From positions 842 to 64,841 of the forward strand of contig CAZBBB010000007.1 in the NCBI GenBank assembly GCA_964490005.1: a stretch of 64,000 nt of DNA, in the 5' to 3' direction. Every line of letters starts with the position of its first letter. The first letter of the stretch is position 1. Position numbers and translations under genes: made by a program. The notes beneath the pieces are model-generated. The model did no database searches. It had not been told where the DNA came from and saw nothing but the letters and a program-made list of their open reading frames with translations. This document shows, piece by piece, positions 33,110-59,146 of the stretch. Source of the DNA: an uncultured Phycisphaerales bacterium (GTDB lineage: Bacteria > Planctomycetota > B15-G4).

Positions 33110-33958
33110 TCAGGGACCCAGCGGGTCGGCGGCTCCGGTCGCCGGCCCGCTGGCGTTCAGGCCGACCGTCGGCGCGTCCGCGTGGTCCGTCCAGCGCGCT
33201 TCGAAGCGCCGCAACTCGTCGGGCGCGTAGAAGCGCCGCACCCACGGTGCCGCGTACGCGGCGCGGACGACGCGGGCGGGCAGGCGAACGTCCTGCAGGA
33301 AGCGCGCGTACAGCGCGCCCGCGACTCCATCCACGCCGCGGTGCACCGGCCGCCAATCGATGCCGGCGAGACCGAGCAGCCGGCCGAGCGCCGCGGGCGC
33401 CACGCGATCGAGGTCCTCGAGGCGCAACAGGAGCAGTTCGGCCCGGGGTGATGCGTGCCGCGCATGCCCCTGGTCCCACGGGAAGTCGCGGGCGCAGACG
33501 TCGAGGCCGGTCAGCGGCCGCAGTTCCTCGTCGAACCAGCGCGTCGACTGCGCCAGCCAGAAGTCCAGTCGCTCCAGGAGCGCCGCCTGCAGCCGGGACG
33601 ACACGTCGCCGGGGTGCGCACCCGGATCGATCAACTCGGGATGTCGTCGCGGCAGCGTGTGGAAGAAGGCCGAGACGGCGCGCGCCACGGGCTCGCGCAC
33701 GGTCGTCACCACCGCGATGCGCGCGTCGATCGCCGCGATGGAGGCCGCCAGCCGGCGCAGCCGCTCTCCCTTGGCGGCGTACTTGTCCGTGCCGGGAAAC
33801 TCGCGCTGCAGCGCGTCGTAGCGCTCGGCCGCCTGCGCCGAGAGGGCGTGCGCGTGATGCACGGGAACGCTGCCGGCGGCGCGCTTGAGCGCCTCGTGCA
33901 GCGTCTTGGAACCGCACTTGGGGAGTTGGAAGACGAGCAGGGCACCGAAGGCGCTCAT
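33110..33958 (-). CDS. sulfotransferase-family protein
   Basis: 282 aa from ATG 33958. N-terminal PAPS-loop-like VFQLPKCGSKTL. The 561-aa track ORF continues across the tRNA-Gly gene and is not credible upstream of 33958. Confidence 0.7.
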   Translation of the reverse strand: MSAFGALLVFQLPKCGSKTLHEALKRAAGSVPVHHAHALSAQAAERYDALQREFPGTDKYAAKGERLRRLAASIAAIDARIAVVTTVREPVARAVSAFFHTLPRRHPELIDPGAHPGDVSSRLQAALLERLDFWLAQSTRWFDEELRPLTGLDVCARDFPWDQGHARHASPRAELLLLRLEDLDRVAPAALGRLLGLAGIDWRPVHRGVDGVAGALYARFLQDVRLPARVVRAAYAAPWVRRFYAPDELRRFEARWTDHADAPTVGLNASGPATGAADPLGP

Positions 33959-34049
33959 CGATGGCGGCACTCGACGCGGCCGCGCTCCGGGGGCACGGCG
34001 CCGGGGATGCGGCAGAGCCGCGACGGAGCGCGCGGGCGGCGCCGATCGG

Positions 34050-34125
34050 TGGAGCGGGTGACCGGGTTCGAACCGGCGACATTCAGCTTGGGAAGCTGAC
34101 ACTCTGCCAACTGAGTTACACCCGC
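34050..34125 (-). tRNA. tRNA-Gly (anticodon CCC), CCA encoded
   Basis: Hand-folded: acceptor GCGGGTG/CACCCGC, D arm ACTC-AGTTGGCA-GAGT, anticodon arm TCAGC-TTCCCAA-GCTGA, T arm GCCGG-TTCGAAC-CCGGT, discriminator U plus CCA. Length 76 nt. Confidence 0.95.
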
Positions 34126-34163
34126 GACCTCGGTCGCCCGGTACGGGACGACCTCCGGCCGAG

Positions 34164-34193
34164 AGGATATTCGCGACTCGCACGGGCTGGCAA
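34164..34193 (-). promoter_or_regulatory. candidate sigma-70-type promoter for tRNA-Gly
   Basis: On the minus strand: TTGCCA, 18-nt spacer, TATCCT. The -10 ends 38 nt before the mature tRNA 5' end. It lies in one of the few AT-containing patches nearby. Confidence 0.35.
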
Positions 34194-34303
34194 GGGCCGT
34201 GCGTCGTCGCCCACGACGCTCGCGCGATCGCCGATTGACTCGCCGGGGCGCCGCGCCGGACACTCGCGATTCCTTCCGACCACGGCCCGCAGCGGCGCCA
34301 CGC

Positions 34304-34816
34304 ATGGTCTCCGATCGCCCCTCGACCACCCTCCTGCGCAGTCTGCGCCTGGTCGTCTTCGATTTCGACGGCGTGTTCACGGACAACACCGTGATCGTGC
34401 ACCAGGACGGGACCGAGTCGGTGCGTTGCTGGCGCAGCGACGGCTTGGGGATCGCGCGCCTGCGGGCCACCGGCGTGGAACTCGCGGTGCTCTCGACGGA
34501 GCAGAACCCGGTCGTCAGCGCGCGCTGCGCCAAGTTGCGCCTCGAGTGCATCCAGGGTTGCGAGGAGAAGGGCGCCGCCCTGCGCGCGCTCGCGGCGCGC
34601 CGTGCCGTTCCGCTGGCGCGGGTCGCATACGTCGGCAACGACGTGAACGACATCACGAGTCTCCGGCTCGCGGGTCTGCCGATCGCGGTCGCCGATGCCC
34701 ACCCGAGCATCCTCCCGTTGGCGGAATACCGCACGCGGGCCCGCGGAGGCCGCGGTGCCGTGCGCGAGATCTGCGACATGATCGCCGCCGCGCACGAGGC
34801 GTCGCCCGAGTGCTGA
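34304..34816 (+). CDS. HAD-superfamily YrbI/KdsC-type ulosonate-phosphate phosphatase
   Basis: VFDFDGVFTDN nucleophile motif, then S-T...K and GNDVND motifs typical of KDO-8-P/KDN-9-P phosphatases. ATG at 34304; the track start adds an Arg-rich extension. Confidence 0.85.
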   Translation: MVSDRPSTTLLRSLRLVVFDFDGVFTDNTVIVHQDGTESVRCWRSDGLGIARLRATGVELAVLSTEQNPVVSARCAKLRLECIQGCEEKGAALRALAARRAVPLARVAYVGNDVNDITSLRLAGLPIAVADAHPSILPLAEYRTRARGGRGAVREICDMIAAAHEASPEC

Positions 34817-34887
34817 GGCGCCTGCGCCTCGATGGCAAGCCCGCGACCTCCGCGATACGATGCGCCGTGCAGCGTCGTGATGGGTGA

Positions 34888-37131
34888 ATGGCGCGTCGCA
34901 CGTTCACGATTCGAGCCGGGATGTCACGCACGACCAAGGGACTCTTCGCGCTGGCCGCCGCCGCGATCCTGAGCTGCGGCGCCTGGTACGGCGGCCTGGA
35001 CGGGGCGAGTCTGGCCCTGCTGGCCGTCTTCGCGGCTGCGAGCTGGGTCGCCTACCGGCGAGTCATGCGCCGGCAGCACAAGGACACGGTGCTGCTCGCC
35101 GACGCCTTGGACGAGCAGGCGCGCGCGTGCGCCGAGTTGCGCCGGCAATTGGATTCCCGCACGGAGAGCCTCGAGGAGGTCGTGCGCGGGACGAGCACGG
35201 CGCTCGCGGCGGCGCTGTCGGCCCGCTTCGACGAACTCAAGAAACGATCGGCGGCGACCGACGAGGCGCTCCGGGAACTCGACACCCGGCTGCGGCTCGC
35301 GACCGAGGACCAGCGCGGCCGTCTCGACGAAGTCCGCGCCGAGGGACGTGAGCGGGCCGGGAAGCTCGAGCAGATCGTCGCCGAGCACGCACTGCGCGCG
35401 GAGGAGGCGCGCCGGGTCGCCGAAGCCGTGCGCGCGGCCGCGGCGTCCGGCGAGCACGCGCTGTCCCGCCTCGACGCCCTGGTCCGCGGACACTCCGAGG
35501 CCCTGGACACGCATGCGCGGAGTCTGGAGGAAGCGCTCGACCTCCGTGCACGCCGCTTGGACGAAGTGCTGGAGACCCGTGCCCGGGACCTGGCCGAGGC
35601 CCTGGACACGCATGCGCGGCGTCAGGCGGAGGCGCATGCGGCGCTGCTGCGCGAGCAGGCCGAAGCGACCTCGCGCCTCGATGCGCTCGCGCAGGGCCAG
35701 GCGAGCGGCGGCGAGGGCGACCGCATCCGGCACGCCGAACTCGTCGCGGCGCTCCAGCGACTCGAGTCCGCCGGGAGCGCCGCGGCCGACGCCACCGCCC
35801 GGCACGGTGACGCGCTGATCCGCGCCAGCGAGAGGATGCTCGCGGGCATCGAACTCGTCCGGGAGGCGCAGCGATCGTCGACGACCTCGCACGCGCAGTT
35901 CTCGGAGCGCCTCGAGCGCGAGCTGGCCGGCCTCGCCCGCGCGGAGGACCTCGCCCGCCTGCTCGAGGCGGGGCGACGGCTGAAGGAATCCTCTGAGGAG
36001 AACTTCGACGGGCTGCGCCAGGCACTGGGAGCGCTCGCCGGAGACCTCGAGCGGCAGACCGCACCGGCAGCGACGAAACTGGCCGACCTGCTGCGGGCCG
36101 CCGACGCGACGAGCGTGCGACTCGACGCGTTGGGGGAGCAGGCGCGCGCCGCGCACGCCACGCTCGAGCGCCTCGCGGAGCAGGCGGCGCGGCTGCCGTC
36201 CGCGCCGGACGCCGAGCGCCTGCAGGCCGAGTTTCGCGACGCGGCGAAGGCGCGCGCCAAGGTCGTCAAGGCGGTGCGCGTGTCCGGCGAGTCGCTCCAG
36301 CGCGAGCTGCGCTACCTCGTCGACACGATGCTGCACGACAAGCTCCATCCGCCCGCGGCCCCGGACAACGAACTCGCGAAGTACGCGCAGCGGCGCTTCG
36401 AGAAGCACCGGGAGACGATCGACTTCGCGCGGGCCGTCGAGGACAGCCGGCTGCGCGAGCTGTATCTGGCCGAGATCCTGCCCGACGTCGCCAAGGTGTC
36501 GCTCCCCGTCGGGGCCGTGCAGGAACTCACCGGCCACGCGAACAAGGTGGACATGCTGTTCGTGTGCGCCATCGCCAAGCACCGCAAGGCCCGGCGCATC
36601 CTCGAGTTCGGCACCTACCTCGGGCGCACGACCTACCACCTCACGTACGCGTCTCCCTCGGCGCACGTCACCACCGTGGCCCTGCCCGACGCGCAGGCGG
36701 CGGTCTACGGCGCGTTCGAGGTCGGCAGCTTCTACCGAGGCACCGCTCGGGAGAAGCGCATCACCGAACTGCGCCTCGACTCGGGGCAGCTCGACGAGCA
36801 GGAGTACGAGCAGCGGTTCGACTTCATCCTGATCGACGGCGACCACAGCTACGAGGGCGTGCGGAGCGACTCCGAGAAGGCCTTCAAGATGCTGCGCCGG
36901 GGCGGCGCGATCCTGTGGCACGACTTCGCGCCCAAGACGCCGGGCGTCGTCCGCTATGCTCGCGAACTGTCGCAGCAGCTGCCGCTGTTCCGGATCAAGC
37001 GCACGAGCCTGCTCATGCACATCGACGGCGTCGATCCGCTGGGCTTCAAGGAGCACCCGCTGCCCGACTCGCTCGAGTTGCGGCGCCTGCGCGAGGACCC
37101 GTTCTTCATCGAGGAGCTCTACCATGCGTGA
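34888..37131 (+). CDS. membrane-anchored long coiled-coil protein with a C-terminal class I SAM-dependent methyltransferase domain
   Basis: Two N-terminal hydrophobic helices, then about 430 aa of heptad-like E/R/A/L sequence. C-terminal domain has ILEFGTYLGRTT...FDFILIDGDHSYEG...GGAILWHD (Methyltransf_24 / O-MT family 3-like). Confidence 0.85.
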   Translation: MARRTFTIRAGMSRTTKGLFALAAAAILSCGAWYGGLDGASLALLAVFAAASWVAYRRVMRRQHKDTVLLADALDEQARACAELRRQLDSRTESLEEVVRGTSTALAAALSARFDELKKRSAATDEALRELDTRLRLATEDQRGRLDEVRAEGRERAGKLEQIVAEHALRAEEARRVAEAVRAAAASGEHALSRLDALVRGHSEALDTHARSLEEALDLRARRLDEVLETRARDLAEALDTHARRQAEAHAALLREQAEATSRLDALAQGQASGGEGDRIRHAELVAALQRLESAGSAAADATARHGDALIRASERMLAGIELVREAQRSSTTSHAQFSERLERELAGLARAEDLARLLEAGRRLKESSEENFDGLRQALGALAGDLERQTAPAATKLADLLRAADATSVRLDALGEQARAAHATLERLAEQAARLPSAPDAERLQAEFRDAAKARAKVVKAVRVSGESLQRELRYLVDTMLHDKLHPPAAPDNELAKYAQRRFEKHRETIDFARAVEDSRLRELYLAEILPDVAKVSLPVGAVQELTGHANKVDMLFVCAIAKHRKARRILEFGTYLGRTTYHLTYASPSAHVTTVALPDAQAAVYGAFEVGSFYRGTAREKRITELRLDSGQLDEQEYEQRFDFILIDGDHSYEGVRSDSEKAFKMLRRGGAILWHDFAPKTPGVVRYARELSQQLPLFRIKRTSLLMHIDGVDPLGFKEHPLPDSLELRRLREDPFFIEELYHA
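35495..35619 (+). repeat. exact 26-nt direct repeat inside the coiled-coil region
   Basis: CCGAGGCCCTGGACACGCATGCGCGG occurs at 35495-35520 and 35594-35619, offset 99 nt (33 codons). It encodes (S/A)EALDTHAR twice. Confidence 0.9.
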
Positions 37132-38773
37132 GGCGCCGGGCGGCACGCCGCCCGCCCCCGGCGGCTGGGCGGGGCTCCTCGGCCGGGACGCGGCGGCCTG
37201 GGAGCGGGCGCGCGCCGACGCGCAGGGGCCGCGCGTGCTGTTCGCGACGAGCATGGGCGGCTTCGTGCTCGGCTCGCTGGTCGAGAGCGCGCTGGCCGCC
37301 GCGCTCACGCTGCGCGGAGCGCGCGTCGAGTTCCTGCTCTGCGACAGCGCCCTGCCCGGCTGCCAGCAGACCGAGATCGGCAACACGACGCCCGCGCAGG
37401 TGCGCGAGGCTCCGCCGCTGCCCCGCTGCGAGAAGTGCGAGCGCGTGGGCGGCGAGATCCTCGACCCGCTCGGCCTCGTGGTCCACCGCTACGGCGACGA
37501 GCTCGAACCCCGCGACCGGGAGGAGGCGGCGCGCCTCGCCGCGTCGGTGCCGCTCGCGGAGGTCGGCGCCTTCCGGCACGACGGGCTCGCGGTCGGCGAG
37601 CACGCCCGCGCCGGCGCCCTGCGCTATTTCGCGCGGGGCGACTTCGAGGGCGAGCCCGAGGCCCCGCTCGTCGTGCGCCGCTTCCTCGAAGCCGCGCTGC
37701 TCACGGTTCGCGCCACGCGCCGCCTCATCGCGCGGCGCGGCATCGAGATCGCCTGCTTCCACCACGGGATCTACGTGCCGCAGGGCCTGATCGGCGAGGT
37801 CTGCCGGTCGATGGGCGTGCGCGTCGTGAACTGGAACCCCTCCTACCGCCGCGGCACCTTCGTCTTCAGCCACCACGACAGCTACCACCGCACGATGATC
37901 AGCGAACCGGTCGCGACCTGGGAGGACCGGCCGTGGGGGCCCGAGACGGAGCGCGCGACGATGGCCTACCTCGCGAGCCGCCGCCGCGGCACCGAGGACT
38001 GGATCTGGTTCCACGAGACGCCCGAGGAGGACGCGCGCGCCATCGAGCGCGCCTGCGGCGTGGACTTCTCGCGACCGTGCGTCGCGCTGCTGACCAGCGT
38101 CGTGTGGGACGCGCAACTGCACTACGCGAGCAACGCCTTTCCCGACATGACGAGCTGGGTGCTGCGCACGATCGAGTGGTTCGCCGGCCGGCCCGACCTG
38201 CAGCTCGTCGTGCGCGTCCATCCCGCCGAGATCCACGGGGGCGTCCCCTCGCGGCAGCGGATGGCCGACGAGATCGCCCGCCGCTTCGCCGCGCTGCCGC
38301 CGAACGTGTTCGTGCTCGGTCCGGAGAGCAGCGCGAGCACCTACACGATCGTCGACCGCTGCAACGCCGCACTCATCTACAACACCAAGACCGGCATCGA
38401 GGTCAGCGCGCAGGGCATCCCCGTGATCGTGGCCGGGGAGGCCTGGGTGCGCGGCAAGGGCTTCACGCTCGACGCCCGCAGCGCGGCCGAGTACTTCGAA
38501 CTGCTCGGCCGCCTGCCGCTCCCGGGCCGCCTGCCGGCCGCGCAGGTGCTGCGCGCGCGCCGCTACGCGCACCACTTCTTCTTCCGGCGGATGATCCGCC
38601 TGCCCTTCGTGGCTCAGGACCCCAAGGGCCGCTTCGTGCTCGGCGTGGAGAGCCTGCAGCGGCTCGCGCCGGGCGCGACGCCCGAACTCGACGCGGTGTG
38701 CGCCGGCATCCTCGAGGGGCTGCCGTTCGTGTTCGATCCCGCGCCGCGGGAGGGCGTCGCGCATGGGGCCTGA
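37124..38773 (+). CDS. capsule-polysaccharide-biosynthesis (KpsC/KpsS-like, Capsule_synth family) protein, paralogue A
   Basis: 549 aa. The ATG overlaps the previous gene's end. Conserved blocks are shared with 48052-49755 (HHG.YVPQGLIG, VVNWNP, VVWDAQLHY, LVVRVHPAE, GIPVIVAGEAWVRGKG). 4-Cys motif LLCD.ALP.C...C..C. Confidence 0.7.
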   Translation: MREAPGGTPPAPGGWAGLLGRDAAAWERARADAQGPRVLFATSMGGFVLGSLVESALAAALTLRGARVEFLLCDSALPGCQQTEIGNTTPAQVREAPPLPRCEKCERVGGEILDPLGLVVHRYGDELEPRDREEAARLAASVPLAEVGAFRHDGLAVGEHARAGALRYFARGDFEGEPEAPLVVRRFLEAALLTVRATRRLIARRGIEIACFHHGIYVPQGLIGEVCRSMGVRVVNWNPSYRRGTFVFSHHDSYHRTMISEPVATWEDRPWGPETERATMAYLASRRRGTEDWIWFHETPEEDARAIERACGVDFSRPCVALLTSVVWDAQLHYASNAFPDMTSWVLRTIEWFAGRPDLQLVVRVHPAEIHGGVPSRQRMADEIARRFAALPPNVFVLGPESSASTYTIVDRCNAALIYNTKTGIEVSAQGIPVIVAGEAWVRGKGFTLDARSAAEYFELLGRLPLPGRLPAAQVLRARRYAHHFFFRRMIRLPFVAQDPKGRFVLGVESLQRLAPGATPELDAVCAGILEGLPFVFDPAPREGVAHGA

Positions 38774-52411: not shown

Positions 52412-53875
52412 TCAGGTCTCGCCGGGCGCCGAGTGCAGGTAGACCGTCTTCCACTCCGAGTAGACGTCGAGCGCCTCGGTGCCGGCCTCGCGCGTGCCGT
52501 TGCCCGACAGGCCGAGGCCGCCGAAGGGCAGGTGCGGCTCGCTGCCGTAGGTCGCGCCGTTCACCGAGACGACGCCGGTGCGGACGCGATTCATGAACAC
52601 GAGCGCGCGGTTCACGTCGCGCGTGTGGATGGCGGCCGTGAGGCCGAAGGGCGAATCGTTGGCCAGCGCGAGCGCGGCCTCGAAGTCGGGCACGCGGTGC
52701 AGCACGGTGATCGGGCCGAACAGCTCGCAGGCGGAGAGCGGGTCGCCCGGCGGCAGCTCCTCGAGCACGGTGGGCGCCATGTAGCAGCCGGCGGCGCGGC
52801 CCGCATCCGTCAGGCGCGTGCCGCCGATCGCGACGCGCGCTCCGCGGCCCGTCGCGGCCTGCACGGACTGCAGCATCGCGCGCAGTTGCGTCTCGTTGAT
52901 CACCGGCCCGAGGTCGTCCTCGTCGAAGGGGCCCACGCGCAGCGCGCGCGTGCGCTCGAGCAGCGCCCGGCGGAAGGGTTCGTACACGGACTCGAACACG
53001 ATCAGCCGGCTGGCCGCGGCGCAGCGCTGGCCGGCGTTGCTGAAGGCCGAGAGCACGGCGACGTCGGCGGCGCGCTCGAGTTCGGCGTCGTCGCAGACCA
53101 CGAGCGCGTTCTTGCCGCCGAGTTCGAGGCAGGTGCGCGCCAGGCGCCGGCCGGCGGCGACCGCGATGCCGCGCCCGACCTCGGCCGAACCGGTGAAGCT
53201 GACGAGGTCGACGCCGGCGTGCTCGACGAGCGGCGCGCCGGCCTCCGGGCCGAGCCCGTGCAGCGTGTTGAGCACGCCGGCCGGCAGGCCGGCCTCGTGG
53301 AGCAGCCGGCCGAACAGCGCCGCCGTGGCGGGGGCGTCCTCGCTCGACTTGAGCACGGCGGCGTTGCCGCAGAGCAGCGCCGGAAAGGCCTTCCAGGCGA
53401 CGTTCGCGATCGGCGTGTTCGCGGGCACGATCAGCCCCGCGACGCCGACCGGCTGACGCAGCGTGAGCGCCTGGCGGTGGGGCACGGCGCTCGTCGTCGT
53501 GCGGCCGTAGAGCCGGCGACCCTCGCCCGCCACGAACAGGCCCATCTCGATCGCGGCCGAGGTCTCGCCGCGCGCGTCCTTCAGGGACTTGCCGGTCTCG
53601 AGGTGCACGACGCGCGCGACGTCCTCGAGGCGCTCGCGCAGGGCCAGCGCGCCCGCCCGCAGCAGATCGCCGCGCTCGACCGCCGTGCGGGCCGCCCAGG
53701 CCGGCTGCGCCGCGCGGGCGGAGGCCACCGCCGCCGCCACGTCGGCCGCGCGCGAGCGCGCCGCCGTGCACAGTTCGCGTCCGTCGACCGGGGACTGCTT
53801 GGGAAAGCGCTCGCCGTCGGCCGCCGGCCGCTCGCGGCCGGCGATGACGTTGTCGATCCGCGCCGGGATCACCAT
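52412..53875 (-). CDS. NAD(P)-dependent aldehyde dehydrogenase
   Basis: 487 aa. Catalytic Glu context LELGGKNA and Cys context NAGQRCAAAS. ATG at 53875 overlaps the SDR stop by 7 nt. Confidence 0.92.
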   Translation of the reverse strand: MVIPARIDNVIAGRERPAADGERFPKQSPVDGRELCTAARSRAADVAAAVASARAAQPAWAARTAVERGDLLRAGALALRERLEDVARVVHLETGKSLKDARGETSAAIEMGLFVAGEGRRLYGRTTTSAVPHRQALTLRQPVGVAGLIVPANTPIANVAWKAFPALLCGNAAVLKSSEDAPATAALFGRLLHEAGLPAGVLNTLHGLGPEAGAPLVEHAGVDLVSFTGSAEVGRGIAVAAGRRLARTCLELGGKNALVVCDDAELERAADVAVLSAFSNAGQRCAAASRLIVFESVYEPFRRALLERTRALRVGPFDEDDLGPVINETQLRAMLQSVQAATGRGARVAIGGTRLTDAGRAAGCYMAPTVLEELPPGDPLSACELFGPITVLHRVPDFEAALALANDSPFGLTAAIHTRDVNRALVFMNRVRTGVVSVNGATYGSEPHLPFGGLGLSGNGTREAGTEALDVYSEWKTVYLHSAPGET

Positions 53876-54678
53876 GCCGTGTACCCGCCGTCGACGCGCA
53901 GTTCGATGCCGGTGACGTAGCGCGCGGCGCGCGACGCGAGGAAGACCAGCGGGCCGCCGAGTTCGTCCTCCTGCGCGAGCCGTCCGAGCGGGACGTGCGC
54001 GCCGTAGCGGGCCTTGAAGCGCTCGTCCTGCCCGCCGAGCACGCCGCCCGGGGACAGCGCGTTGACGCGCACGCCGTGCGCGCCCCAGTGCGCCGCCAGA
54101 TAGCGCGTGAAGCCGAGGACGGCCGACTTCGAGGCGCCGTAGGCCAGCGGCTTGACGAAGGGCGGATCGCGGTCGAGATGCTCGTAGTAGCGCGGGTCGG
54201 GCGCGCGCGAGGCGTAGACCGAACCGATGTTCACGATCGAGCCGCGACCGGCGCGACACATCGGTCCGCCGAAGACCTGGCTGCACGTGACGGTGCCCAC
54301 CAGGTTGACGTCGAGGATCTGGCGCGTGAGTTCGGCGGGGAAGTCCTCGATGGCCCACGTGGGGGCGCCGGGTGCGGGCGGCTGGTCGATGCCGGCGTTG
54401 TTCACCAGGATCGAGGCCGGGCCCAGCTCGCGCGCCGCGAGGTCGCGCGCGGCGCGCAGCGCGTCGGCGTCGCGGACGTCGGCCTCGAGCCGGAGCAGCG
54501 CCTCGCCGTGCCGGTCGGCCAGCGCCTGGAAGCGCGCGTCGGGCGCGACGCCGGGCCGGTCGAGCGCGAGCACGCGCGCGCCGGCCGCGGTCAGCGCCTC
54601 GACCCAGACGGGCCCCAGACGCCCGAGCGCTCCGGTGACGACGGCCGACTCCCCGTCGAGCGAGAAGTCGGGCCTCAT
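53869..54678 (-). CDS. short-chain dehydrogenase/reductase (SDR)
   Basis: VVTGALGRLG cofactor motif, NNAG, and the catalytic S...YGASK. The ATG overlaps the NeuB-like stop (ATGA). Confidence 0.92.
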   Translation of the reverse strand: MRPDFSLDGESAVVTGALGRLGPVWVEALTAAGARVLALDRPGVAPDARFQALADRHGEALLRLEADVRDADALRAARDLAARELGPASILVNNAGIDQPPAPGAPTWAIEDFPAELTRQILDVNLVGTVTCSQVFGGPMCRAGRGSIVNIGSVYASRAPDPRYYEHLDRDPPFVKPLAYGASKSAVLGFTRYLAAHWGAHGVRVNALSPGGVLGGQDERFKARYGAHVPLGRLAQEDELGGPLVFLASRAARYVTGIELRVDGGYTAW

Positions 54679-55775
54679 GGGGCCGGATCGGCGGCCCGTG
54701 CGCGCGGCGTCTCCGCCGCGGCGAGCGGCTCGAGGTGCCCGAGCGCGAGCGGCACCTCGACGTCGAGCGCGACGCGCAGCGCGCGTCCGAGCACCGCGCC
54801 GAGTTCGGCGGGCGGCACGCCGCCCCCGGGCGACTTGATGCGCAGGTCGCCCTCGGCGAGCACGTGGCCGACCGGCAGCGCACGCGCGGTGTACAGGCTC
54901 TTGCCCATCTTGCGTCGGGCCTCGGCCTCGATCGGCAGCACGCGCTTGACGCCGTCGCCGAGCGCGACGCGCGCGCGCTCGAGGTCCCGCACCATCTTGC
55001 GCAGACCGGCGGGCTCGAGCGAGAAGGCGTGGTCGGTGCCCTTCATGGCGCGATTGAGCGTGAAGTGCTTCTCGATCACGCGCGCGCCCAGGACGTAGGC
55101 CGCGACGGCCATGGCGATGCCGCTGTCGTGCATCGAGGCGCCGATGACGGCGCCCGGCAGTTCGCGGCGGTAGCTGTCGATGACGTTCAGGTTGAGGTCG
55201 GAGAACTCGTTCGGGTAGCTGGCCGTGCACTGCAGCAGCGCCAGCTGCGGGTTGATCGGCATGATCGTGTCGTGCGCGCGCCGCACGTCGAGCATCGCGG
55301 CCGCGCCCGTGCTCACGATCATCGGCTTGCCGATGCGCGCCACGTGCCGCAGGAGCGGCAGGTTCGTCAGGTCGCCCGAGGCGATCTTGACGGCCGGAAC
55401 GTCGAGTTCGGCCAGGAAGTCGGCGCTCTCGAAGTCGAAGGCCGTCGCGAAGAAGGCCAGGCCGAGTTCGTCGCAGCGGCGTCGCAGCACGAGGTACTCG
55501 TCGCGGCCGAACTCCAGGAACTCGCGATGCTGACCGTAGGTGCGGCCGAAGGAGTTCTCGCTCTCGTAGGGCCGATCGTACATCTCCCGCGTGTAGAGCG
55601 AGCGGTTGTCCCGCTTCTGCAGCTTGACCGCGTGCGCCCCGGCCTCGTGCGCCGCCTCGACCAGCTTGAGCGCCGTCTCGAGACTGCCCTGGTGATTGTG
55701 GCCGACCTCGGCGATGACGTAGCAGGGTGCGTCGTCACGCACGGTGACGCCGCCGATCACGATCTCTCGGTTCAA
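54675..55775 (-). CDS. NeuB-family ulosonic (sialic-acid-type) acid synthase with a C-terminal SAF domain
   Basis: YVIAEVGHNHQG, AVKLQKR, KIASGD, IVSTG and EKHFT motifs plus a SAF-like tail. TTG at 55775 (GGAG 9 nt upstream) leaves 18 aa before IAEVG. The track start at 55871 adds Arg-rich junk. Confidence 0.9.
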   Translation of the reverse strand: MNREIVIGGVTVRDDAPCYVIAEVGHNHQGSLETALKLVEAAHEAGAHAVKLQKRDNRSLYTREMYDRPYESENSFGRTYGQHREFLEFGRDEYLVLRRRCDELGLAFFATAFDFESADFLAELDVPAVKIASGDLTNLPLLRHVARIGKPMIVSTGAAAMLDVRRAHDTIMPINPQLALLQCTASYPNEFSDLNLNVIDSYRRELPGAVIGASMHDSGIAMAVAAYVLGARVIEKHFTLNRAMKGTDHAFSLEPAGLRKMVRDLERARVALGDGVKRVLPIEAEARRKMGKSLYTARALPVGHVLAEGDLRIKSPGGGVPPAELGAVLGRALRVALDVEVPLALGHLEPLAAAETPRARAADPAP

Positions 55776-55917
55776 GGTTCGCTGCTCCCGCCGCTCTCGA
55801 TGCGCTGGCCCGCCGGCCGCGCCGGGCGCCCGCTCCGGCCGACGCCGGAACGCGGGCGCAGAGTATACCAACGCGCCGAACGGCGGCGGAGCGGAGCGGA
55901 CGCTCGCGGCGCCCTGC

Positions 55918-56667
55918 TCAGTGCGCCGCGCGGCGATGGATCAGGTTGAGGATGCGCGTGCCCTTGACCAGGCGCGGCGCGTTGCCCGGCACGCCGTCGT
56001 CGCGCTGCAGGCCGGCCGCGCTCAGCACGCGTCCGATCTCCGCGACCTCGTCCGCGTCGTCGAGGTCGACCTCGACGAGCACCGAGCGCAGCTCCGGCGC
56101 CGCGAAGGTGCGGGCGCCGCCGCGCACGACGGCCGTCTCGAGGCCGTCGACGTCGATCTTGACGTGCTGCGGCGCGGGCAGCCCGTACTGCTCGCGCAAC
56201 GCGTCGATGCTCAGCGCGAGCGCCCCCTGCTGCCAGGCCGGCACGAAGGTCTCGCGCTTGAAGTCGACGGCGCTCCCGAACACGTGCAGCGAGCCGCCGA
56301 CGCGGTTGTCGCGCATGCGCAGCGTGTCGATGCGGCAGCGCTCGTCGAGCGCGAGGGGCAGGGCCCGCACCCGGGCGTCGAGGCCGTTGCGGAGGATGTT
56401 GCAGTTGAGGCCGTGGAAGTTGGCCGCTCCGGGCTCGAAGGCCCAGACGGTGCAGTCGCGCGCCACGGCGGCGTAGAGCGCGTAGGTGCCGACGTTGGCG
56501 CCGATGTCCCACAGCACCTCGCCCGGCCGGAAGCCGTCGATCCAGGCGATCGTGCCCGGCTCCTTGTCGAAGAGCGTCTCGGCGCGCCGGCGCGCGAGTT
56601 CGGTGGGGCACTCGAAGGCCAGCGTCCGGCCGGCGATGCGGTGCGTCACGATGGGGGGCTCGTCCAC
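55918..56667 (-). CDS. FkbM-family methyltransferase
   Basis: VLWDIGANVGTYALYAA...VWAFEP pattern typical of FkbM-type SAM methyltransferases. GTG start. Confidence 0.85.
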   Translation of the reverse strand: MDEPPIVTHRIAGRTLAFECPTELARRRAETLFDKEPGTIAWIDGFRPGEVLWDIGANVGTYALYAAVARDCTVWAFEPGAANFHGLNCNILRNGLDARVRALPLALDERCRIDTLRMRDNRVGGSLHVFGSAVDFKRETFVPAWQQGALALSIDALREQYGLPAPQHVKIDVDGLETAVVRGGARTFAAPELRSVLVEVDLDDADEVAEIGRVLSAAGLQRDDGVPGNAPRLVKGTRILNLIHRRAAH

Positions 56668-56840
56668 CTCGGCCTCGATCCTCCGTGCGCGGCGCGCGAG
56701 CGGCCCGCGCGCGCACCGCGCGCGACGCGTGGGCCGTGCATCCTGCGCTTCGCCGCGCGACGCGTCCAGATCGGCCGGCGCGGGAAGCGCGCAGGCGCCT
56801 GGTAGACTCGCGACGCCGAGCCAGGGGATCCTGCACCGCG

Positions 56841-57974
56841 GTGAGCACGCAGAACGACGCCCGCTTCCTGTTCCTCGCCGGCGGGCCGCGAACCGGGACG
56901 AGCATGCTCGTCCGGCACTTCGACGCGCACCCCGACCTGCTCGTGTTCCCGATCGAGGTCTCGCTCCTCCGCGACGTGGCGCGCACCGGCGACTGCGCCG
57001 AGGCCGCGCGCGAGTACCGCGCGCCCGCCGGCAGCGCCCGCAAGGAGCTGTTCTTCATCGAGCGCGCCCGGCTCGAGGCCTATGTCGGTCGACTGCAGGC
57101 CGAGGGGCTCGACCGCGCCGACCTGTACCGTCAGGTCGACGGCGCGCGCTTCGCGGAGGCGCTCGCGGCGGCCCTGCGCGCGCCGGGCCCGGAGGGCCCC
57201 GGCAAGCTGCTGCTCGCGCTGGGCGCGGCGCTCTCGGCCGGACATCCCGCCGCCGGGCCGCCGCCCTCGGCCGGGCGCGCGCTGGCGCTCAAGCTGCCGT
57301 TCTACGCGGAGATGGCGGCGCCCGCGCTGGCCGCGGCGCTCCCCGGCGCCCGCTTCGTGCACCTGCTGCGCGAGCCGCTGCCGCGCTACGTCTCGAGCAA
57401 GGCGCGCCGCCTGCGCACGCGCGGCGGGCGCGTCGGGGCGGTCGGGACCGTCGACTACACGACCTTCCAGATCGAGCTCGGGATCGCCTCGCGCGTGCTC
57501 GCCGAGGACAACGCGCGGCGCCTCGGGTCGCGCTACGTGCACGTGCGCTTCGAGGACCTCGTCGCCGACTCCGAACGCGCGCTGCGCGGCTTGTGCGCCG
57601 CGCTCGGCCTCCGCTACGATCCCGTGCTGCTCGCGCAGACGGCCTTCGGGCAGGAGCAGCGCGTCCCCTCCTCCCACGGGTTCATCGACCATGAGCCTGA
57701 GCGCGATGCGGCACGCCGACAGGCCGCGACGTTGCGGATCACGAACGCCGACGAGCGCGAATACGTCTCGGCGCGCTGCGAGGCGGCCTTCGGCGCGCCC
57801 GACCCCGAGCGCCTGGCCGCGCTCATGCGCCGGCGCATGGCGCACGAGGACGACGAGGCCGCCGAACTGCGCCGCGCCGCGGCCGGGCGCCTGCAGGTCG
57901 AGGCGCTGTCGGCGCGCGCGACCTGCGAGCGCGTGCTCGCCGCGCTGCGCGACAAGCCGCTGCCGCTGATCTGA
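56841..57974 (+). CDS. sulfotransferase-family protein
   Basis: GTG 56841. 5'-PSB-like FLFLAGGPRTGTSML and 3'-PB-like RFVHLLREPLPRYVS. The track start (56685) adds Arg-rich sequence. Confidence 0.75.
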   Translation: MSTQNDARFLFLAGGPRTGTSMLVRHFDAHPDLLVFPIEVSLLRDVARTGDCAEAAREYRAPAGSARKELFFIERARLEAYVGRLQAEGLDRADLYRQVDGARFAEALAAALRAPGPEGPGKLLLALGAALSAGHPAAGPPPSAGRALALKLPFYAEMAAPALAAALPGARFVHLLREPLPRYVSSKARRLRTRGGRVGAVGTVDYTTFQIELGIASRVLAEDNARRLGSRYVHVRFEDLVADSERALRGLCAALGLRYDPVLLAQTAFGQEQRVPSSHGFIDHEPERDAARRQAATLRITNADEREYVSARCEAAFGAPDPERLAALMRRRMAHEDDEAAELRRAAAGRLQVEALSARATCERVLAALRDKPLPLI

Positions 57975-57985
57975 GCCGACGCACC

Positions 57986-59146
57986 GTGCGCATCCTGCAT
58001 CTCTTCGCCAACTGGAAGTGGACCGGCCCGGCCGAGCCGGCGCTCAACGTCGCCTGGCGGCAGGCGCGCGCGCACGAGGTGCGCTTCCTGAGCGGCACGC
58101 CGCCCGAGGGGCAGACCTCGCGCATCGAACCGCAGGCGCAGGCGCGTGGCGTGCCGACCGAGGGCGGCTACTACCTGGGCAAGCACGCCCGGCTGCGCCG
58201 CAACCGGCACGACGCGCGCCGCCTGGCCGAATTGCTGCGCTCGTTCCGGCCCGAGATCGTGCACTGCCATCTCGACAACGACCACCGCATCGCGTCGATG
58301 GCGGTCGCGCGCACCGGCATCGGCCGGCTCGTCCGCACGGCCTACGACGTGGAGGGCCTGCGCTCGACGCTGCGGCTGCGGCGCGTCGCGCGGCGGGCGC
58401 TCGCGGGCCTCATCGTCAGCACGCGCGCCGGCCGCGAGGCGACGCTGGCGGCCTGGGGCGGCTCGGAGCGCTCGATCTCGGTGGGCGCGCGCGTGTGCCC
58501 GATGACGCTCGTCGAGGGCGCGATCGACCTGGCGCGCTTCGACCCCGAACGCTTCGACCGCGCCGCGACGCGCGCGCGTCTGGGCCTGCAGCCGGACGAC
58601 GTGGCCGTCGGCATCGTCGCCCGCGTGCAGGCGCACCGCCGCTTCGAGATCCTGCTCGAGGCGCACGAGCGCGTCGCGAAGCTCGACCCGCGGCTCAAGC
58701 TCGTCGTCATCGGCCGCGGCACGCAGATCGGCCCGCTGCTGCTGCGCCCGATCGAGGCGCGCGGGCTGCAGGGCAGCGTACTCACCACGGGCTACCTCGC
58801 GGGCGACGCCTATCCCGAGGCGCTGGCCGCGCTCGACGCCTGCCTGTTCCTCGTGCCGGGCAGCGACGGGACCTGCCGCGCGCTGCGCGAACTGCAGGCC
58901 ATGGGGCTGGCCGCGATCGTGACGCCGCGGCCGCCGCTGCCCGAGATCGTCGAAGAGGGCAGCAGCGGCCTGGTCGTGGCCGAGTCGGCCGCGGGGCTCG
59001 CCGACGGGCTGTCGCGGCTGGTCGCCGGGCAGGCGCTGCGCGAACGCCTGCGCCGGGGCGCCCTCGACTCGGCGCGCCGGCGCTTCGATCTCGACGAGCA
59101 GGCCCGGCGCATCGAGGCCTTCTACGCGCAGGTGCTGGCGGGCTGA
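57986..59146 (+). CDS. GT-B-fold (family 4-like) glycosyltransferase
   Basis: N-terminal MRILHLFANWKWTGPAEP and a C-terminal GT4-like half (VGIVARV...LKLVVIG...). The EX7E region is divergent. Confidence 0.8.
   Translation: MRILHLFANWKWTGPAEPALNVAWRQARAHEVRFLSGTPPEGQTSRIEPQAQARGVPTEGGYYLGKHARLRRNRHDARRLAELLRSFRPEIVHCHLDNDHRIASMAVARTGIGRLVRTAYDVEGLRSTLRLRRVARRALAGLIVSTRAGREATLAAWGGSERSISVGARVCPMTLVEGAIDLARFDPERFDRAATRARLGLQPDDVAVGIVARVQAHRRFEILLEAHERVAKLDPRLKLVVIGRGTQIGPLLLRPIEARGLQGSVLTTGYLAGDAYPEALAALDACLFLVPGSDGTCRALRELQAMGLAAIVTPRPPLPEIVEEGSSGLVVAESAAGLADGLSRLVAGQALRERLRRGALDSARRRFDLDEQARRIEAFYAQVLAG

Follow-up and report, generated by a model that had tools for sequence, protein, structure and literature searches.

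The window analysed here is a 64,000-nucleotide stretch of a contig from an uncultured Phycisphaerales bacterium (Planctomycetota). At positions 33110–59146, a third-codon-position GC frame plot revealed 21 protein genes (g03–g23), which are interrupted by a tRNA gene and arranged as follows:

33110–33958, minus strand: g03, sulfotransferase-fold protein, NKWYS / Sulfotransfer_2-like (NKWYS PF10364, 34.7 bits)
34050–34125, minus strand: tRNA-Gly(CCC) (Rfam tRNA, 67 bits, and ARAGORN)
34304–34816, plus strand: g04, HAD phosphatase of the KdsC / Kdn-9-P phosphatase (YrbI) family (NCBIfam matches, DFDGV motif)
34888–37131, plus strand: g05, membrane-anchored O-methyltransferase, 747 aa (Methyltransf_24, 43.5 bits at residues 572–680)
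37124–38773, plus strand: g06 (CapS1), KpsC-like fold, proposed CMP-ulosonic-acid transferase (Capsule_synth, 23.4 bits, cut-off 20)
38763–40553, plus strand: g07, O-carbamoyltransferase of the NodU/CmcH type (Carbam_trans_C, 197 bits; Carbam_trans_N, 107 bits)
40561–41661, plus strand: g08, divergent GT-B glycosyltransferase (Glyco_trans_1_4, 33.6 bits, weak)
41658–42950, plus strand: g09, GT-B-fold "surface carbohydrate biosynthesis protein" (distant TIGR04396, 36 bits)
42947–43825, plus strand: g10, SAM methyltransferase, alternative GTG start at 42920 (Methyltransf_11, 55.7 bits)
43822–44781, plus strand: g11, GT2, last gene of the plus-strand operon (Glycos_transf_2, 93 bits)
44795–46042, minus strand: g12, Wzt ABC ATPase (ABC_tran, 70 bits)
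46039–46923, minus strand: g13, Wzm ABC-2 permease, start corrected (ABC2_membrane, 59.6 bits)
46946–48052, minus strand: g14, GT4 (Glycos_transf_1, 103 bits; Glyco_transf_4, 52 bits)
48052–49755, minus strand: g15 (CapS2), paralog of g06, final gene of the conserved cassette (Capsule_synth, 16.7 bits, below cut-off)
49752–51647, minus strand: g16, transketolase-like ThDP enzyme (all three transketolase domains)
51640–52407, minus strand: g17, cytidylyltransferase, CMP-sugar synthetase (CTP_transf_3, 73.9 bits)
52412–53875, minus strand: g18, NAD(P)-dependent aldehyde dehydrogenase, ALDH (Aldedh, 476 bits)
53869–54678, minus strand: g19, sugar-acid-type short-chain dehydrogenase, SDR (adh_short_C2, 144 bits)
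54675–55775, minus strand: g20, NeuB-family PEP-condensing synthase with SAF domain, first gene of the cassette (NeuB, 256 bits)
55918–56667, minus strand: g21, FkbM-family methyltransferase upstream of the cassette operon (Methyltransf_21, 35 bits)
56841–57974, plus strand: g22, sulfotransferase (Sulfotransfer_3, 76.3 bits)
57986–59146, plus strand: g23, GT4, final gene of the locus (Glycos_transf_1, 62 bits; Glyco_transf_4, 33.5 bits)

The 21 genes form four transcription units, two of which are translationally coupled operons: throughout g05–g11 and g20–g12, start and stop codons overlap by 1–11 bp or are separated by gaps of at most 22 bp. The edges of this 26-kb locus are sound, with an FG-GAP protein upstream and IspDF and RuvC downstream; IspDF begins at 59150, right after g23, and the flanking genes are housekeeping genes. 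The tRNA-Gly(CCC) gene, a non-biosynthetic feature inside the interval, separates the main operon from g03, which is transcribed alone downstream of it. Translation of g04 probably starts at 34304, with an alternative GTG start at 34199. The longest ORF of the Wzm permease carries a spurious, R/P/S-rich N-terminal extension of 145 aa that overlaps g14; the true start of g13 is the ATG at 46923, giving MSMSDL....

The original prediction listed the families expected in this interval, and Pfam and NCBIfam searches recovered each of them almost gene for gene, with g15 below the Capsule_synth cut-off. They comprise two sulfotransferases (g03, g22), a NodU/CmcH carbamoyltransferase (g07), three methyltransferases (g05, g10, g21), a GT2 (g11), two GT4-like (g14, g23) and two divergent GT-B-like proteins (g08, g09), two Capsule_synth-like proteins (g06, g15), the Wzm/Wzt pair (g13, g12), and an ulosonic-acid module (g04, g20, g17) accompanied by transketolase, ALDH and SDR (g16, g18, g19). 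The predicted absence of Wzx/Wzy, a polyprenyl-phosphate transferase and OPX/PCP proteins agrees with the Pfam scan, which matched none of these among the scanned called genes of the window; five called genes lack any Pfam match, and two short ORFs (3–374, the region 17604–18356 aside) were uninformative. An initiating transferase, a ligase and PAPS genes were likewise not found on the 65-kb contig.

Within the sugar module, the synthase g20 matches NeuB_NnaB at 281 bits, under the 400-bit cut-off, and is 34% identical to E. coli K1 NeuB. The cytidylyltransferase g17 is nearer to the NeuA/PseF type than to KdsB (PseF 133 bits vs at most 49 bits for KdsB models) and shares only 30% identity over 92 aa with E. 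coli KpsU. The NeuB and SAF domains, together with the PseF-like cytidylyltransferase, point to a C9-type product. The scores of g04 all lie below cut-offs (NCBIfam KdsC 121.6 bits, TIGR01670 102.9, KDN-9-P phosphatase 82), and these matches suggest an ulosonate phosphate as intermediate. Among NCBIfam models, g19 scores highest against mannonate oxidoreductase and gluconate 5-dehydrogenase, KduD ranking further down, and g18 scores highest against the dehydrogenases of 2,5-dioxovalerate and alpha-ketoglutarate semialdehyde without reaching their cut-offs. The nearest PDB match of g16 is human-type transketolase (4kxu, E 5e-49), and residues H48, H80, H112, D156, N186, H268, E368, H430 and R474 are kept in all aligned cassette homologs. 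In contrast, 33 aligned cassette sequences carry D347, L/Y/F418 and P426 in place of human S345, H416 and D424, with D347 and P426 invariant; relative to the human enzyme, g16 lacks two phosphate ligands and the stereo-determining Asp. On this alignment, g16 retains its catalytic and ThDP-binding residues in a remodelled substrate pocket.

The minus-strand operon runs NeuB–SDR–ALDH–cytidylyltransferase–transketolase-like–Capsule_synth-like–GT4. We compared it with the surroundings of 401 g06 relatives in GTDB species genomes, a comparison that the original prediction had suggested. The order NeuB–(HAD)–SDR–ALDH–CTP–TK–CapS–(GT4) is conserved in at least eight phyla (Acidobacteriota, Gemmatimonadota, Chloroflexota, Cyanobacteria, Verrucomicrobiota, Nitrospirota, Fibrobacterota and Proteobacteria) and agrees in two Pfam-annotated contigs (L001, L086). 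Among 84 related loci, homologs of g20 occur in 33 (median identity 61%), of g18 in 28 (median 60%) and of g19 in 26, and g04 homologs lie within the cassette in 13 loci. The transketolase-then-CapS order of g16–g15 is conserved across phyla, and CapS is followed by a GT4 in 29 of the 84 loci; here, the start of g14 overlaps the stop of g15. Thirty-six CapS loci have full 10-kb flanks: the cytidylyltransferase is present in 20, and the transketolase, NeuB, SDR and ALDH in 17 each. All five genes occur together in 10 of these loci and at least three in 18, while 12 have none within 10 kb, so CapS proteins may take another donor such as CMP-Kdo.

The two CapS proteins are full-length paralogs (53% identity, E 2e-171) that belong to a large unnamed, uncharacterised family. 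The AF2 model of g06 (pLDDT 91.6) has KpsC modules as its top Foldseek matches (6mgb, 8fux, 8fuw, 6mgc and 6mgd; E 2e-8 to 8e-6; TM on target 0.49–0.57). In g06 numbering, the family shares an invariant R364-x-H366-P367, an invariant D329 within [N/S]xxxD and four invariant Cys. The [N/S]xxxD motif stands where Kdo transferases have QxxxD, with Gln replaced by Asn/Ser, and the Asp-to-His spacing is 37 residues compared with 34 in KpsC-N and KrkA. Direct hhalign of the family profile against E. coli KpsC-N gave a weak local match that places CapS VRVHP on KpsC KVHP (E 3.5e-4, probability 37%), and a very weak one places CapS S-V-V-W-D on KpsS Q-V-Y-N-D (probability 3%). Fusions of CapS domains to GT2 and methyltransferase domains are also seen, an arrangement like that of multidomain polymerases.

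Homologs of g08 are found in 20 of the 84 loci, usually immediately after CapS. The GT-B protein g09 has no Pfam match, and its AF2 model (pLDDT 92.3) retrieves generic GT-B folds in Foldseek. It is fused to a Methyltransf_11 domain in one related locus (L004) and in numerous other proteins roughly 740 aa long, which indicates functional coupling to g10, and to a sulfotransferase domain in another (L002). In turn, g10 is 51% identical to residues 449–751 of the 755-aa L004 fusion and represents the stand-alone form of its C-terminal half; g11 homologs follow the g09–methyltransferase in L002, L004 and L007.

Both sulfotransferases carry PAPS motifs (PKCGSKT and REPVARAVS in g03; GPRTGTS and REPLPRYVS in g22). 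The Sulfotransfer_2 match of g03 is weak (E 0.0038) and the protein has a single homolog among the 84 loci. ORFs related to g22 occur in L002, L015, L031 and L071. CapS also adjoins a carbamoyltransferase in L085, L086, L008, L032, L033 and L062, and the FkbM protein g21 (TIGR01444, 62.7 bits, above cut-off) has homologs in five related loci. These modifying enzymes are genuine, so it is reasonable to predict a sulfated, carbamoylated and methylated polymer with an acidic sugar of the ulosonic type. Sulfotransferase-like ORFs occur in 7 of 82 related loci and carbamoyltransferases in about 8 (tblastn finds 6, and Pfam adds L085 and L086). The combination of sulfation and carbamoylation is rare, as had been proposed, but each modification recurs with the cassette; both are accessories that loci of this type have only occasionally.

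With regard to export, the Wzt ATPase g12 contains a C-terminal Wzt_C carbohydrate-binding domain (residues 240–362, 42.6 bits, cut-off 30.4), as do Wzt proteins in L001 and L004. From its N- to its C-terminus, g05 consists of a membrane anchor, some 400 residues of helical spacer and an O-methyltransferase; PDB matches are of O-methyltransferase type at 538–679 and apolipoprotein type at 46–149. Residues 1–392 lack proline, the hydrophobic periodicity is 3.2–3.7 in most windows of residues 57–420 (two peak at 2.9), and the signal at period 3.5 is stronger than in 98.6% of shuffles. Composition and periodicity suggest a coiled coil. The protein, which has no homolog among the 84 loci, is a candidate chain-capping enzyme or ruler. 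Together, the Wzt_C domain and the membrane-anchored long helix suggest capped-chain export of the O-antigen type, with cap recognition and capping proposed to be handled as for E. coli O9a-type O-antigens. Such export would explain the "missing" capsule export genes: the absence of OPX/PCP and initiating genes is expected for an O-antigen-type Wzm/Wzt whose Wzt has a carbohydrate-binding domain.

All chemical steps of the following scheme are inferred, as are the acceptor lipid, the cap and the place where the polymer ends up; as a whole, we consider the scheme probable. The NeuB-family synthase g20 would condense PEP with a sugar phosphate, and the KdsC-type phosphatase would remove the terminal phosphate to yield a Kdn-like 3-deoxy-2-ulosonic acid, which SDR, transketolase-like enzyme and ALDH would then remodel. 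The SDR may oxidize the penultimate hydroxyl to a ketose-like end, the transketolase-like enzyme may take off the terminal two-carbon unit, and the ALDH may oxidize the new aldehyde, giving a chain-shortened 3-deoxy-2-ulosaric (dicarboxylic) acid. A transketolase donor must offer an unblocked HOCH2-CO- terminus in the 3S,4R configuration; read from its omega end, 8-keto-Kdn has exactly such a terminus, and its terminal phosphate must go first. The best models of the SDR, which are secondary-alcohol sugar-acid dehydrogenases, and of the ALDH, which act on 2-keto-acid semialdehydes, support this chemistry. Alternatively, the transketolase could supply a precursor or extend a chain. The NeuA/PseF-like cytidylyltransferase would form the CMP-sugar, to be transferred by the KpsC-fold proteins g15 and g06, each paired with a neighbouring GT-B (g14 and g08). 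Further transferases (g09, g11, g23) would complete the chain, and the sulfotransferases, carbamoyltransferase and methyltransferases would decorate it. Wzm/Wzt would export the finished lipid-linked chain, with the Wzt carbohydrate-binding domain probably recognizing a terminal cap added by the candidate capping enzyme g05.

One alternative, implied by the original prediction, is a group-2-like capsule, in which g06 and g15 act like KpsS and KpsC to build a beta-Kdo oligomer on phospholipid. Elongation would fall to the other transferases, and export to a KpsMT-like transporter whose partners KpsE and KpsD are encoded elsewhere. The weak Capsule_synth matches, the KpsC modules as closest solved folds of g06, the RxHP and Asp motifs of CapS and a weak KpsM match of Wzm (44.7 bits vs a 300-bit cut-off) all fit this picture. 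However, CapS proteins are single modules of about 550 aa with four invariant Cys, whereas KpsC is a dual-module protein of 675 aa and KpsS has 401 aa, and neither g06, g15 nor the family profile matched solved KpsC structures at E<=10 in PDB sequence searches. Moreover, the family is tied to the NeuB–transketolase cassette rather than to kpsF/kpsU. It keeps this association across phyla, Chloroflexota and one Paceibacterota genome among them, and adjoins a Wzx-type flippase in one locus. These features make a role in building a lipid-linked poly-Kdo primer unlikely. The ATPase carries Wzt_C, which the 219-aa E. coli KpsT lacks, and neither a KpsE nor a KpsD gene lies in the window. We therefore regard a group-2-like capsule as highly improbable. 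Of the original KpsC/KpsS-like assignment, the fold and the family match of g06 stand, while identity with the primer enzymes does not; on motifs and the structural model, we read g06 and g15 as probable dedicated transferases for the CMP-sugar of the cassette.

A second alternative accepts the same locus but assigns it an ordinary Kdn- or Kdo-type sugar, with the transketolase boosting precursor supply and the SDR and ALDH serving another part of the polymer, for instance a substituent of uronic or glyceric acid. The known Kdn route is complete with just NeuB, a phosphatase of the YrbI family and a cytidylyltransferase, and canonical transketolases make E4P, R5P and GAP. In addition, ALDH is missing from some cassettes (L001, L038) and HAD from many, a poor fit with an obligatory six-step route. 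Yet ordinary pentose-phosphate substrates are hard to reconcile with the loss of the phosphate-binding residues (S345 to D, H416 to L/Y/F) and of the Asp by which the acceptor hydroxyl is read (D424 to P), where the replacements D347 and P426 do not vary between phyla, and the fixed position of SDR, ALDH and transketolase between NeuB and CapS in many phyla suggests a single pathway. We consider an ordinary sugar doubtful. A juxtaposition of unrelated pathways, in which these three enzymes have central or catabolic roles and the sulfating, carbamoylating and methylating enzymes serve other substrates, could account for the four transcription units, the internal tRNA gene and the few or absent homologs of g03, g05, g22 and g23 in related loci. 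But codon overlaps tie the three enzymes to NeuB, the cytidylyltransferase, CapS, GT4 and Wzm/Wzt, and g09–g10 and CapS domains exist as fusions with modifying or glycosyltransferase domains. The shared gene order across phyla largely refutes this explanation, to which we give almost no credence.

The codon overlaps in both operons, and the co-occurrence of both locus halves in the same direction in other phyla (L004, L015, L031), support the predicted single, coherent ABC-transporter-dependent cell-surface glycan locus in this Planctomycetota host. Mfd agrees with such a host, its best named matches being Planctomycetota MAGs at 59–70% identity. Its core is the cassette from g20 to g15 plus g04, which is present in more than ten phyla and for which we found no published description. 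Transketolase, ALDH and SDR are conserved members of this cassette rather than bystanders, so its sugar probably differs from plain Kdo, Kdn or sialic acid. The apparent role of the cassette is to synthesize a modified acidic sugar and to attach it.

The G+C content of the window is about 74%, and a plain list of its 122 open reading frames is swamped by spurious frames; genes were called from a third-position G+C frame plot, followed by inspection of start codons. Together with Pfam and NCBIfam scans, this resolved 21 protein genes between 33110 and 59146 (g03 to g23, in coordinate order) and recovered every family named in the original prediction of a single glycan locus. The two sulfotransferases (g03 and g22) both carry recognizable PAPS-binding motifs, g07 is a carbamoyltransferase of the NodU/CmcH type, and three genes encode methyltransferases (g05, g10, and g21). 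The glycosyltransferases comprise a GT2 enzyme (g11), two GT4 enzymes (g14 and g23), and two divergent GT-B proteins (g08 and g09). The sugar module consists of a HAD phosphatase (g04), a NeuB synthase (g20), a cytidylyltransferase (g17), a transketolase (g16), an ALDH (g18), and an SDR (g19). For export, the locus encodes both a Wzm permease (g13; ABC2_membrane, 59.6 bits) and a Wzt ATPase (g12; ABC_tran, 70.4 bits), to which the Pfam scan adds a C-terminal carbohydrate-binding domain (Wzt_C, 42.6 bits against a cut-off of 30.4 bits). The start of g13 was corrected from 47358 to 46923, and g04 probably starts at 34304. A tRNA-Gly(CCC) gene (34050-34125, minus strand) separates the sulfotransferase gene g03, which stands alone, from the main operon. 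Island insertion points are often found at such genes, but the G+C content here does not differ from that of the flanks.

Among the scanned called genes of the window, none matched a Pfam model for a flippase, polymerase, initiating transferase, or OPX/PCP protein. Five of these genes have no Pfam match at all, and the predicted absence of Wzx/Wzy, initiating transferase, and OPX/PCP genes holds as far as Pfam reaches. Neither a WecA-type initiation gene nor a WaaL ligase gene is present in the window, whose proteins match an NCBI contig of 65,239 bp exactly and which spans almost all of that contig; Pfam scans found no kpsE, kpsD, or kpsF there. The observational part of the original prediction is confirmed, and its interpretation is partly supported. 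Outside the locus, the window carries housekeeping or unrelated genes, including RibF, Def, S20, Mfd, an HD-RNase III fusion, peroxiredoxin, and ferritin, and further a sigma factor, a DUF748 protein, IspDF, RuvC, and FG-GAP proteins. The closest named relatives of Mfd belong to Planctomycetota MAGs (59-70% identity), and this similarity is the basis for the phylum of the host. Several features outside the locus are listed here.

3792-5276 and 5400-6914, minus strand: tandem paralogs with weak matches to the squalene-hopene-cyclase C-terminal (prenyltransferase-like repeat) domain
11301-13067, minus strand: 588-residue protein, an unusual fusion of an HD phosphohydrolase with HD_assoc (dGTPase-like) to a complete RNase III with dsRNA-binding domain
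13274-14974, plus strand: FG-GAP repeat protein with lower third-position G+C (about 0.8 versus about 0.95)
25078-29727, plus strand: 1549-residue protein with an N-terminal DUF748 match, just upstream of the glycan locus region
31376-33088, plus strand: FG-GAP repeat protein
62456-64000, plus strand: FG-GAP repeat protein

Two of the three FG-GAP proteins flank the glycan locus.

The locus is organized in four units. The gene g03 stands by itself, g04-g11 make up a plus-strand unit and g21-g12 a minus-strand unit, and g22-g23 form the fourth. Neighbouring genes in g05-g11 and in g20-g12 share 1-11 bases or lie no more than 22 bases apart, and such close spacing is typical of translationally coupled operons. 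A sequence search with g06 returned more than 3400 relatives from many phyla (E ≤ 1e-5, 51-63% identity), and 401 relatives are encoded in GTDB genomes, counted with one genome per GTDB species. We fetched 79 loci out of these 401 and compared all window proteins with the related loci by tblastn. A constant gene order emerged, NeuB-(HAD)-SDR-ALDH-cytidylyltransferase-transketolase-CapS-(GT4), where CapS denotes the family of g06 and g15; we refer to the genes from NeuB to CapS, together with the HAD phosphatase, as the cassette. This order is carried by members of the Acidobacteriota, Gemmatimonadota, Chloroflexota, Cyanobacteria, Verrucomicrobiota, Nitrospirota, Fibrobacterota, and Alpha- and Gammaproteobacteria, and the genes g20-g14 of the window follow it exactly. 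Two contigs annotated independently with Pfam (L001 and L086) give the same picture.

The plus-strand half of the locus also recurs, as CapS-GT-B (g08)-g09-methyltransferase-GT2 in loci L002, L004, and L007, and in L004, L015, and L031 (Nitrospirota and Desulfobacterales) both halves run in one direction, with Wzm/Wzt and a sulfotransferase. Because the cassette and the plus-strand half are conserved together in other genomes, the genes do not represent several unrelated pathways; operon spacing and synteny identify a single coherent locus, as originally proposed. Across the 36 loci with complete 10-kb flanks, a cytidylyltransferase occurs in 20, and transketolase, NeuB, SDR, and ALDH in 17 each; all five genes are found in 10 loci and three or more of them in 18, whereas 12 loci have none. 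The cytidylyltransferase, ALDH, and NeuB have median identities across phyla of 58-61%, which shows that they are orthologs rather than chance neighbours.

A carbamoyltransferase adjoins CapS in several related loci, especially in Planctomycetota (L008, L033, L085, and L086), and single-sequence phmmer, the only method used for this count, detected sulfotransferase-like ORFs in 7 of 82 related loci, which is probably an underestimate. Sulfation and carbamoylation therefore appear, from gene content, to be recurrent accessories of such loci. Within this sample both occur in one locus only in the window, in line with the earlier remark that their combination with an ulosonic acid is unusual. Homologs of CapS, the carbamoyltransferase, g08, g09, and the GT2 enzyme, with 40-60% identity to the window, are also found in a contig labelled as a Bifidobacterium breve MAG (L032), which is probably mis-binned. 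Another contig, L086 (ENA ERZ27254793, 556-20519), carries a cassette variant in which a Wzx-type flippase (Polysacc_synt) replaces Wzm/Wzt; it additionally encodes three radical SAM enzymes, two of them B12-binding and one with SPASM, which may point to additional modification chemistry.

The window encodes two members of the CapS family, which had been described as KpsC/KpsS-like; enzymes of the KpsC/KpsS family build a lipid-linked Kdo primer.

37124-38773, plus strand: g06 (CapS1), 549 residues
48052-49755, minus strand: g15 (CapS2), 567 residues

These single-module proteins are full-length paralogs with 53% identity, and their Pfam Capsule_synth scores are marginal (23.4 bits for g06 and 16.7 bits for g15). 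Searches of PDB sequences with g06, g15, and the profile of a 53-sequence family alignment (A1) gave no relevant match. An AlphaFold2 model of g06, built on the 53-sequence alignment (pLDDT 91.6), has a modified GT-B architecture resembling that of solved Kdo transferases. In Foldseek, this model comes closest in structure to KpsC beta-Kdo transferase modules (6mgb, 8fux, 8fuw, 6mgc, and 6mgd; E 2e-8 to 8e-6, TM-score on target 0.49-0.57), which rank ahead of generic GT-B enzymes.

Retaining Kdo transferases use CMP-beta-Kdo and form a covalent sugar adduct on an Asp residue. They share a QxxxD element, containing the nucleophilic Asp and a carboxylate-binding Gln, and a CMP-binding (K/R)xHP motif, as set out in a 2026 paper on GT140 (PMC12887879). 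In the 53 CapS sequences, R364-x-H366-P367 is invariant and corresponds to the (K/R)xHP motif, and the equally invariant D329, within L-T-[N/S]-V-x-W-D, would occupy the Asp position of QxxxD. Its spacing to the HP histidine is much the same as in known enzymes (37 residues, versus 34 in KpsC-N and KrkA), whereas the glutamine position is taken by Asn (27 of 53) or Ser (26 of 53). With the E. coli UTI89 kps locus as reference, hhalign places the CapS VRVHP on the KVHP of KpsC-N (E 3.5e-4, probability 37%) and, in a low-probability alignment, the CapS S-V-V-W-D on the Q-V-Y-N-D of KpsS. The family is thus tied to Kdo transferases only by the fold comparison and by these hhalign alignments with the two E. 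coli proteins, and weakly so. Taken together, the model and the motifs suggest that the CapS family shares the fold and key catalytic elements of retaining Kdo transferases.

CapS is nevertheless a large separate family, neither KpsC nor KpsS, with 4138 clusters at 50% identity at E ≤ 1e-3 and 801 at E ≤ 1e-30. Its members are only 14-15% identical to the retaining beta-Kdo transferases of GT107 (KpsC), GT99 (WbbB), and GT140 (KrkA) and to KpsS, and solved members of this group gave no profile match in the PDB search. CapS also contains about 200 extra residues, including a four-cysteine cluster. Some family members are fused to GT2, methyltransferase, or GSCFA domains, and in their fusion to other GT domains they resemble the multidomain polymerases KrkA and WbbB. 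In the N-terminal domain, the four cysteines are invariant in alignment A1 and arranged as C-x6-C ... C-x2-C (g06 residues 73, 80, 102, and 105), which suggests a structural zinc site that KpsC lacks.

The resemblance to the E. coli group 2 capsule locus (kpsFEDUCS-region 2-kpsTM, UTI89) lies in the combination of an ABC-2 exporter, Capsule_synth-related transferases, and a CMP-sugar pathway. There, however, KpsC consists of two tandem GT107 modules (about 675 residues) and KpsS of one (about 400 residues), and the genes for both lie in one locus with kpsF, E, D, U, M, and T; neither is orthologous to g06 or g15, and KpsT lacks the carbohydrate-binding domain found on the window's Wzt. The assignment of g06 and g15 as primer enzymes did not stand, given their single modules of 549 and 567 residues, the lack of a PDB sequence match, and the absence of kpsE, kpsD, and kpsF from the window. 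We instead read CapS as a dedicated transferase for the CMP-sugar made by the cassette, not as the maker of a poly-Kdo capsule primer, because it holds a fixed position directly after the cassette, adjoins a Wzx-type flippase in L086, and is present in Chloroflexota and one Paceibacterota genome, groups not known to make LPS, and because the kps genes noted above are missing. Its donor is probably the cassette product rather than Kdo.

The cassette contains both a NeuB-family PEP-condensing synthase (g20; 256 bits plus a SAF domain, 34% identity to E. coli NeuB) and a CMP-sugar synthetase (g17; CTP_transf_3, 73.9 bits). In NCBIfam, the YrbI-family phosphatase g04 matches KdsC (122 bits) and Kdn-9-P phosphatase (82 bits), and g17 is NeuA/PseF-like (PseF 133 bits, versus at most 49 bits for KdsB). 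All of these remain below the equivalog cut-offs (NeuB_NnaB 281/400, PseI 229/340, PseF 133/206, and KdsC 122/208). The lack of an aminotransferase, an acetyltransferase, and NeuC implies that the ulosonic acid is not aminated. In Bacteroides thetaiotaomicron, Kdn is made and activated by a Kdn-9-phosphate synthase, a Kdn-9-P phosphatase, and a CMP-Kdn synthetase. The NeuB-family synthase with SAF, the YrbI-family HAD phosphatase, and the CTP_transf_3 cytidylyltransferase appear to follow this logic, but the cassette differs in having three extra conserved enzymes, the SDR, the ALDH, and the transketolase-like protein, inside the operon.

The transketolase-like g16 is closest to human-type and split transketolases. 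It keeps the ThDP- and metal-binding and catalytic residues (H48, H80, H112, D156, N186, H268, E368, H430, and R474), a set conserved in all cassette homologs of a 33-sequence alignment. The canonical substrate ligands, by contrast, are not kept. D347 replaces the human phosphate ligand S345 and P426 the stereo-determining D424, both invariantly across the 33 cassette sequences, and position 418 holds L, Y, or F in place of the human phosphate ligand H416; the TIGR00232 score is 114 bits against a cut-off of 682 bits. Because catalytic residues are kept while pocket residues are replaced across the cassette homologs, g16 is predicted to be a conserved enzyme that acts on a non-canonical substrate. 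The best NCBIfam models for the SDR g19, mannonate oxidoreductase and gluconate 5-dehydrogenase, with KduD lower, are sugar-acid secondary-alcohol dehydrogenases, and those for the ALDH g18 act on 2-keto-acid semialdehydes.

A linear scheme using every cassette enzyme can be drawn from these properties, although we hold it, step by step and as a whole, only tentatively. Condensation and dephosphorylation would yield a Kdn-like acid, whose penultimate carbon (C8 of a Kdn-type acid) would be oxidized by the SDR to give an HOCH2-CO- terminus. The transketolase-like enzyme would then take off this two-carbon unit, the ALDH would turn the new aldehyde into a second carboxylate, and the resulting 3-deoxy-2-ulosaric acid would be activated with CMP. 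A transketolase donor needs a free C1 hydroxyl and the 3S,4R configuration. By Fischer-projection reasoning, 8-keto-Kdn and 7-keto-Kdo, read from the omega end, would show exactly this configuration, and the presence of a phosphatase would be explained because the terminal phosphate must go before the transketolase step.

Two other accounts of the cassette were weighed against this scheme. The product could be the plant sugar Dha, a 3-deoxy-heptulosaric acid already described, but stereochemical reasoning argues against it on two counts: trimming of Kdn would give the L-arabino heptulosaric acid, and a precursor of Dha would lack the 3S,4R configuration of a transketolase donor. Alternatively, the transketolase could supply erythrose-4-phosphate, with oxidation taking place at the sugar terminus; this is less likely, given the similarity of the SDR to secondary-alcohol dehydrogenases and the loss of phosphate ligands from the transketolase. 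The trimming scheme is weakened by cassettes in related loci that are short of the ALDH or HAD gene, and by the third of the CapS loci that have no cassette nearby. On balance, it is possible, though we would not presume it, that the cassette represents a new route to CMP-3-deoxy-hept-2-ulosaric acid, a widespread surface-glycan component installed by a KpsC-fold, double-displacement glycosyltransferase family.

At the level of export and chain termination, the locus may work like an ABC-transporter-dependent O-antigen-type pathway with cap recognition. The protein g05 has a membrane anchor, followed by an amphipathic helical region of about 400 residues and a C-terminal O-methyltransferase domain. 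Residues 1-392 are proline-free. Across residues 57-420, most windows show a hydrophobic periodicity of 3.2-3.7 and two have their peak at 2.9; the power at period 3.5 is greater than in 98.6% of shuffles. By analogy, we propose g05 as a candidate capping methyltransferase on a long helical spacer. Together with Wzt_C, it would resemble the arrangement in E. coli O9a-type O-antigen synthesis, in which WbdD acts as ruler and terminator and export depends on the cap. Similar to E. coli O8/O9a (WbdD) and Klebsiella O12/Raoultella terrigena (WbbB), the window's locus combines Wzm/Wzt carrying a Wzt_C domain with a lack of Wzx/Wzy, OPX, and PCP genes. For O12, a transferase related to KpsC adds the cap, which is an ulosonic acid (PMC9587256). 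The differences are that g05 shows no homology to WbdD, has a reversed layout (anchor, spacer, enzyme) and no kinase domain, and is without a homolog in the related loci, and that the cassette also occurs in Chloroflexota and the Paceibacterota genome.

Conserved proteins of about 750 residues in related loci were considered as g05 counterparts and rejected, as they represent g09 fused to a methyltransferase or sulfotransferase. The g09 protein has a generic GT-B fold, and in many organisms g09 and g10 are single fused proteins of about 740 residues. Fusions of a g09-type GT-B with Methyltransf_11 are found in Desulfobacterales (L004 13894-16161) and many metagenomic proteins, and with a sulfotransferase domain in an Omnitrophota genome (L002 13899-16190). 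Because of these fusions, we consider g09 a transferase physically coupled to a modifying activity, and the g09-type scaffold appears to pair with different modifying activities.

Compared with known systems, the locus pairs a CMP-sugar route resembling that of Kdn with transferases that have the fold of retaining Kdo transferases; it differs from all of these systems in its decoration set, in having a transferase family of its own, and in the remodelling of the sugar by three enzymes. No account of the cassette turned up in the literature that could be searched, and ulosaric acids appeared there only in plants and algae. Plant and algal thecal polymers combine sulfate, O-methyl-Kdo, and Dha (PMC3355719), and they are the only described polymers we found with sulfate, an O-methylated ulosonic acid, and a 3-deoxy-heptulosaric acid, the composition that the proposed scheme would predict. 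This resemblance is one of composition only: those polymers are eukaryotic, and their Dha is the D-lyxo rather than the L-arabino isomer expected from Kdn trimming.

Bacterial surfaces are recognized in large part through ulosonic acids such as Kdo and sialic, legionaminic, and pseudaminic acids, to which no more than a handful of biosynthetic routes are known. The cassette occurs in more than 10 phyla, most of them little studied and environmental, and this breadth suggests that there is a further acidic sugar, along with a large transferase family akin in fold and motifs to retaining Kdo transferases. If the transketolase-like enzyme does trim a sugar acid, ThDP chemistry would gain a new role in nucleotide-sugar biosynthesis, and the search for the plant and algal Dha pathway could be guided by it. 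Concrete, cloneable enzyme sets and cultured carriers, including Geminicoccus harenae CPCC 101083 (locus L082) and Moorena bouillonii PNG (L060), make the prediction testable; if true, an unrecognized sugar would be widespread in Planctomycetota, Acidobacteriota, Gemmatimonadota, Chloroflexota, Cyanobacteria, and other phyla.
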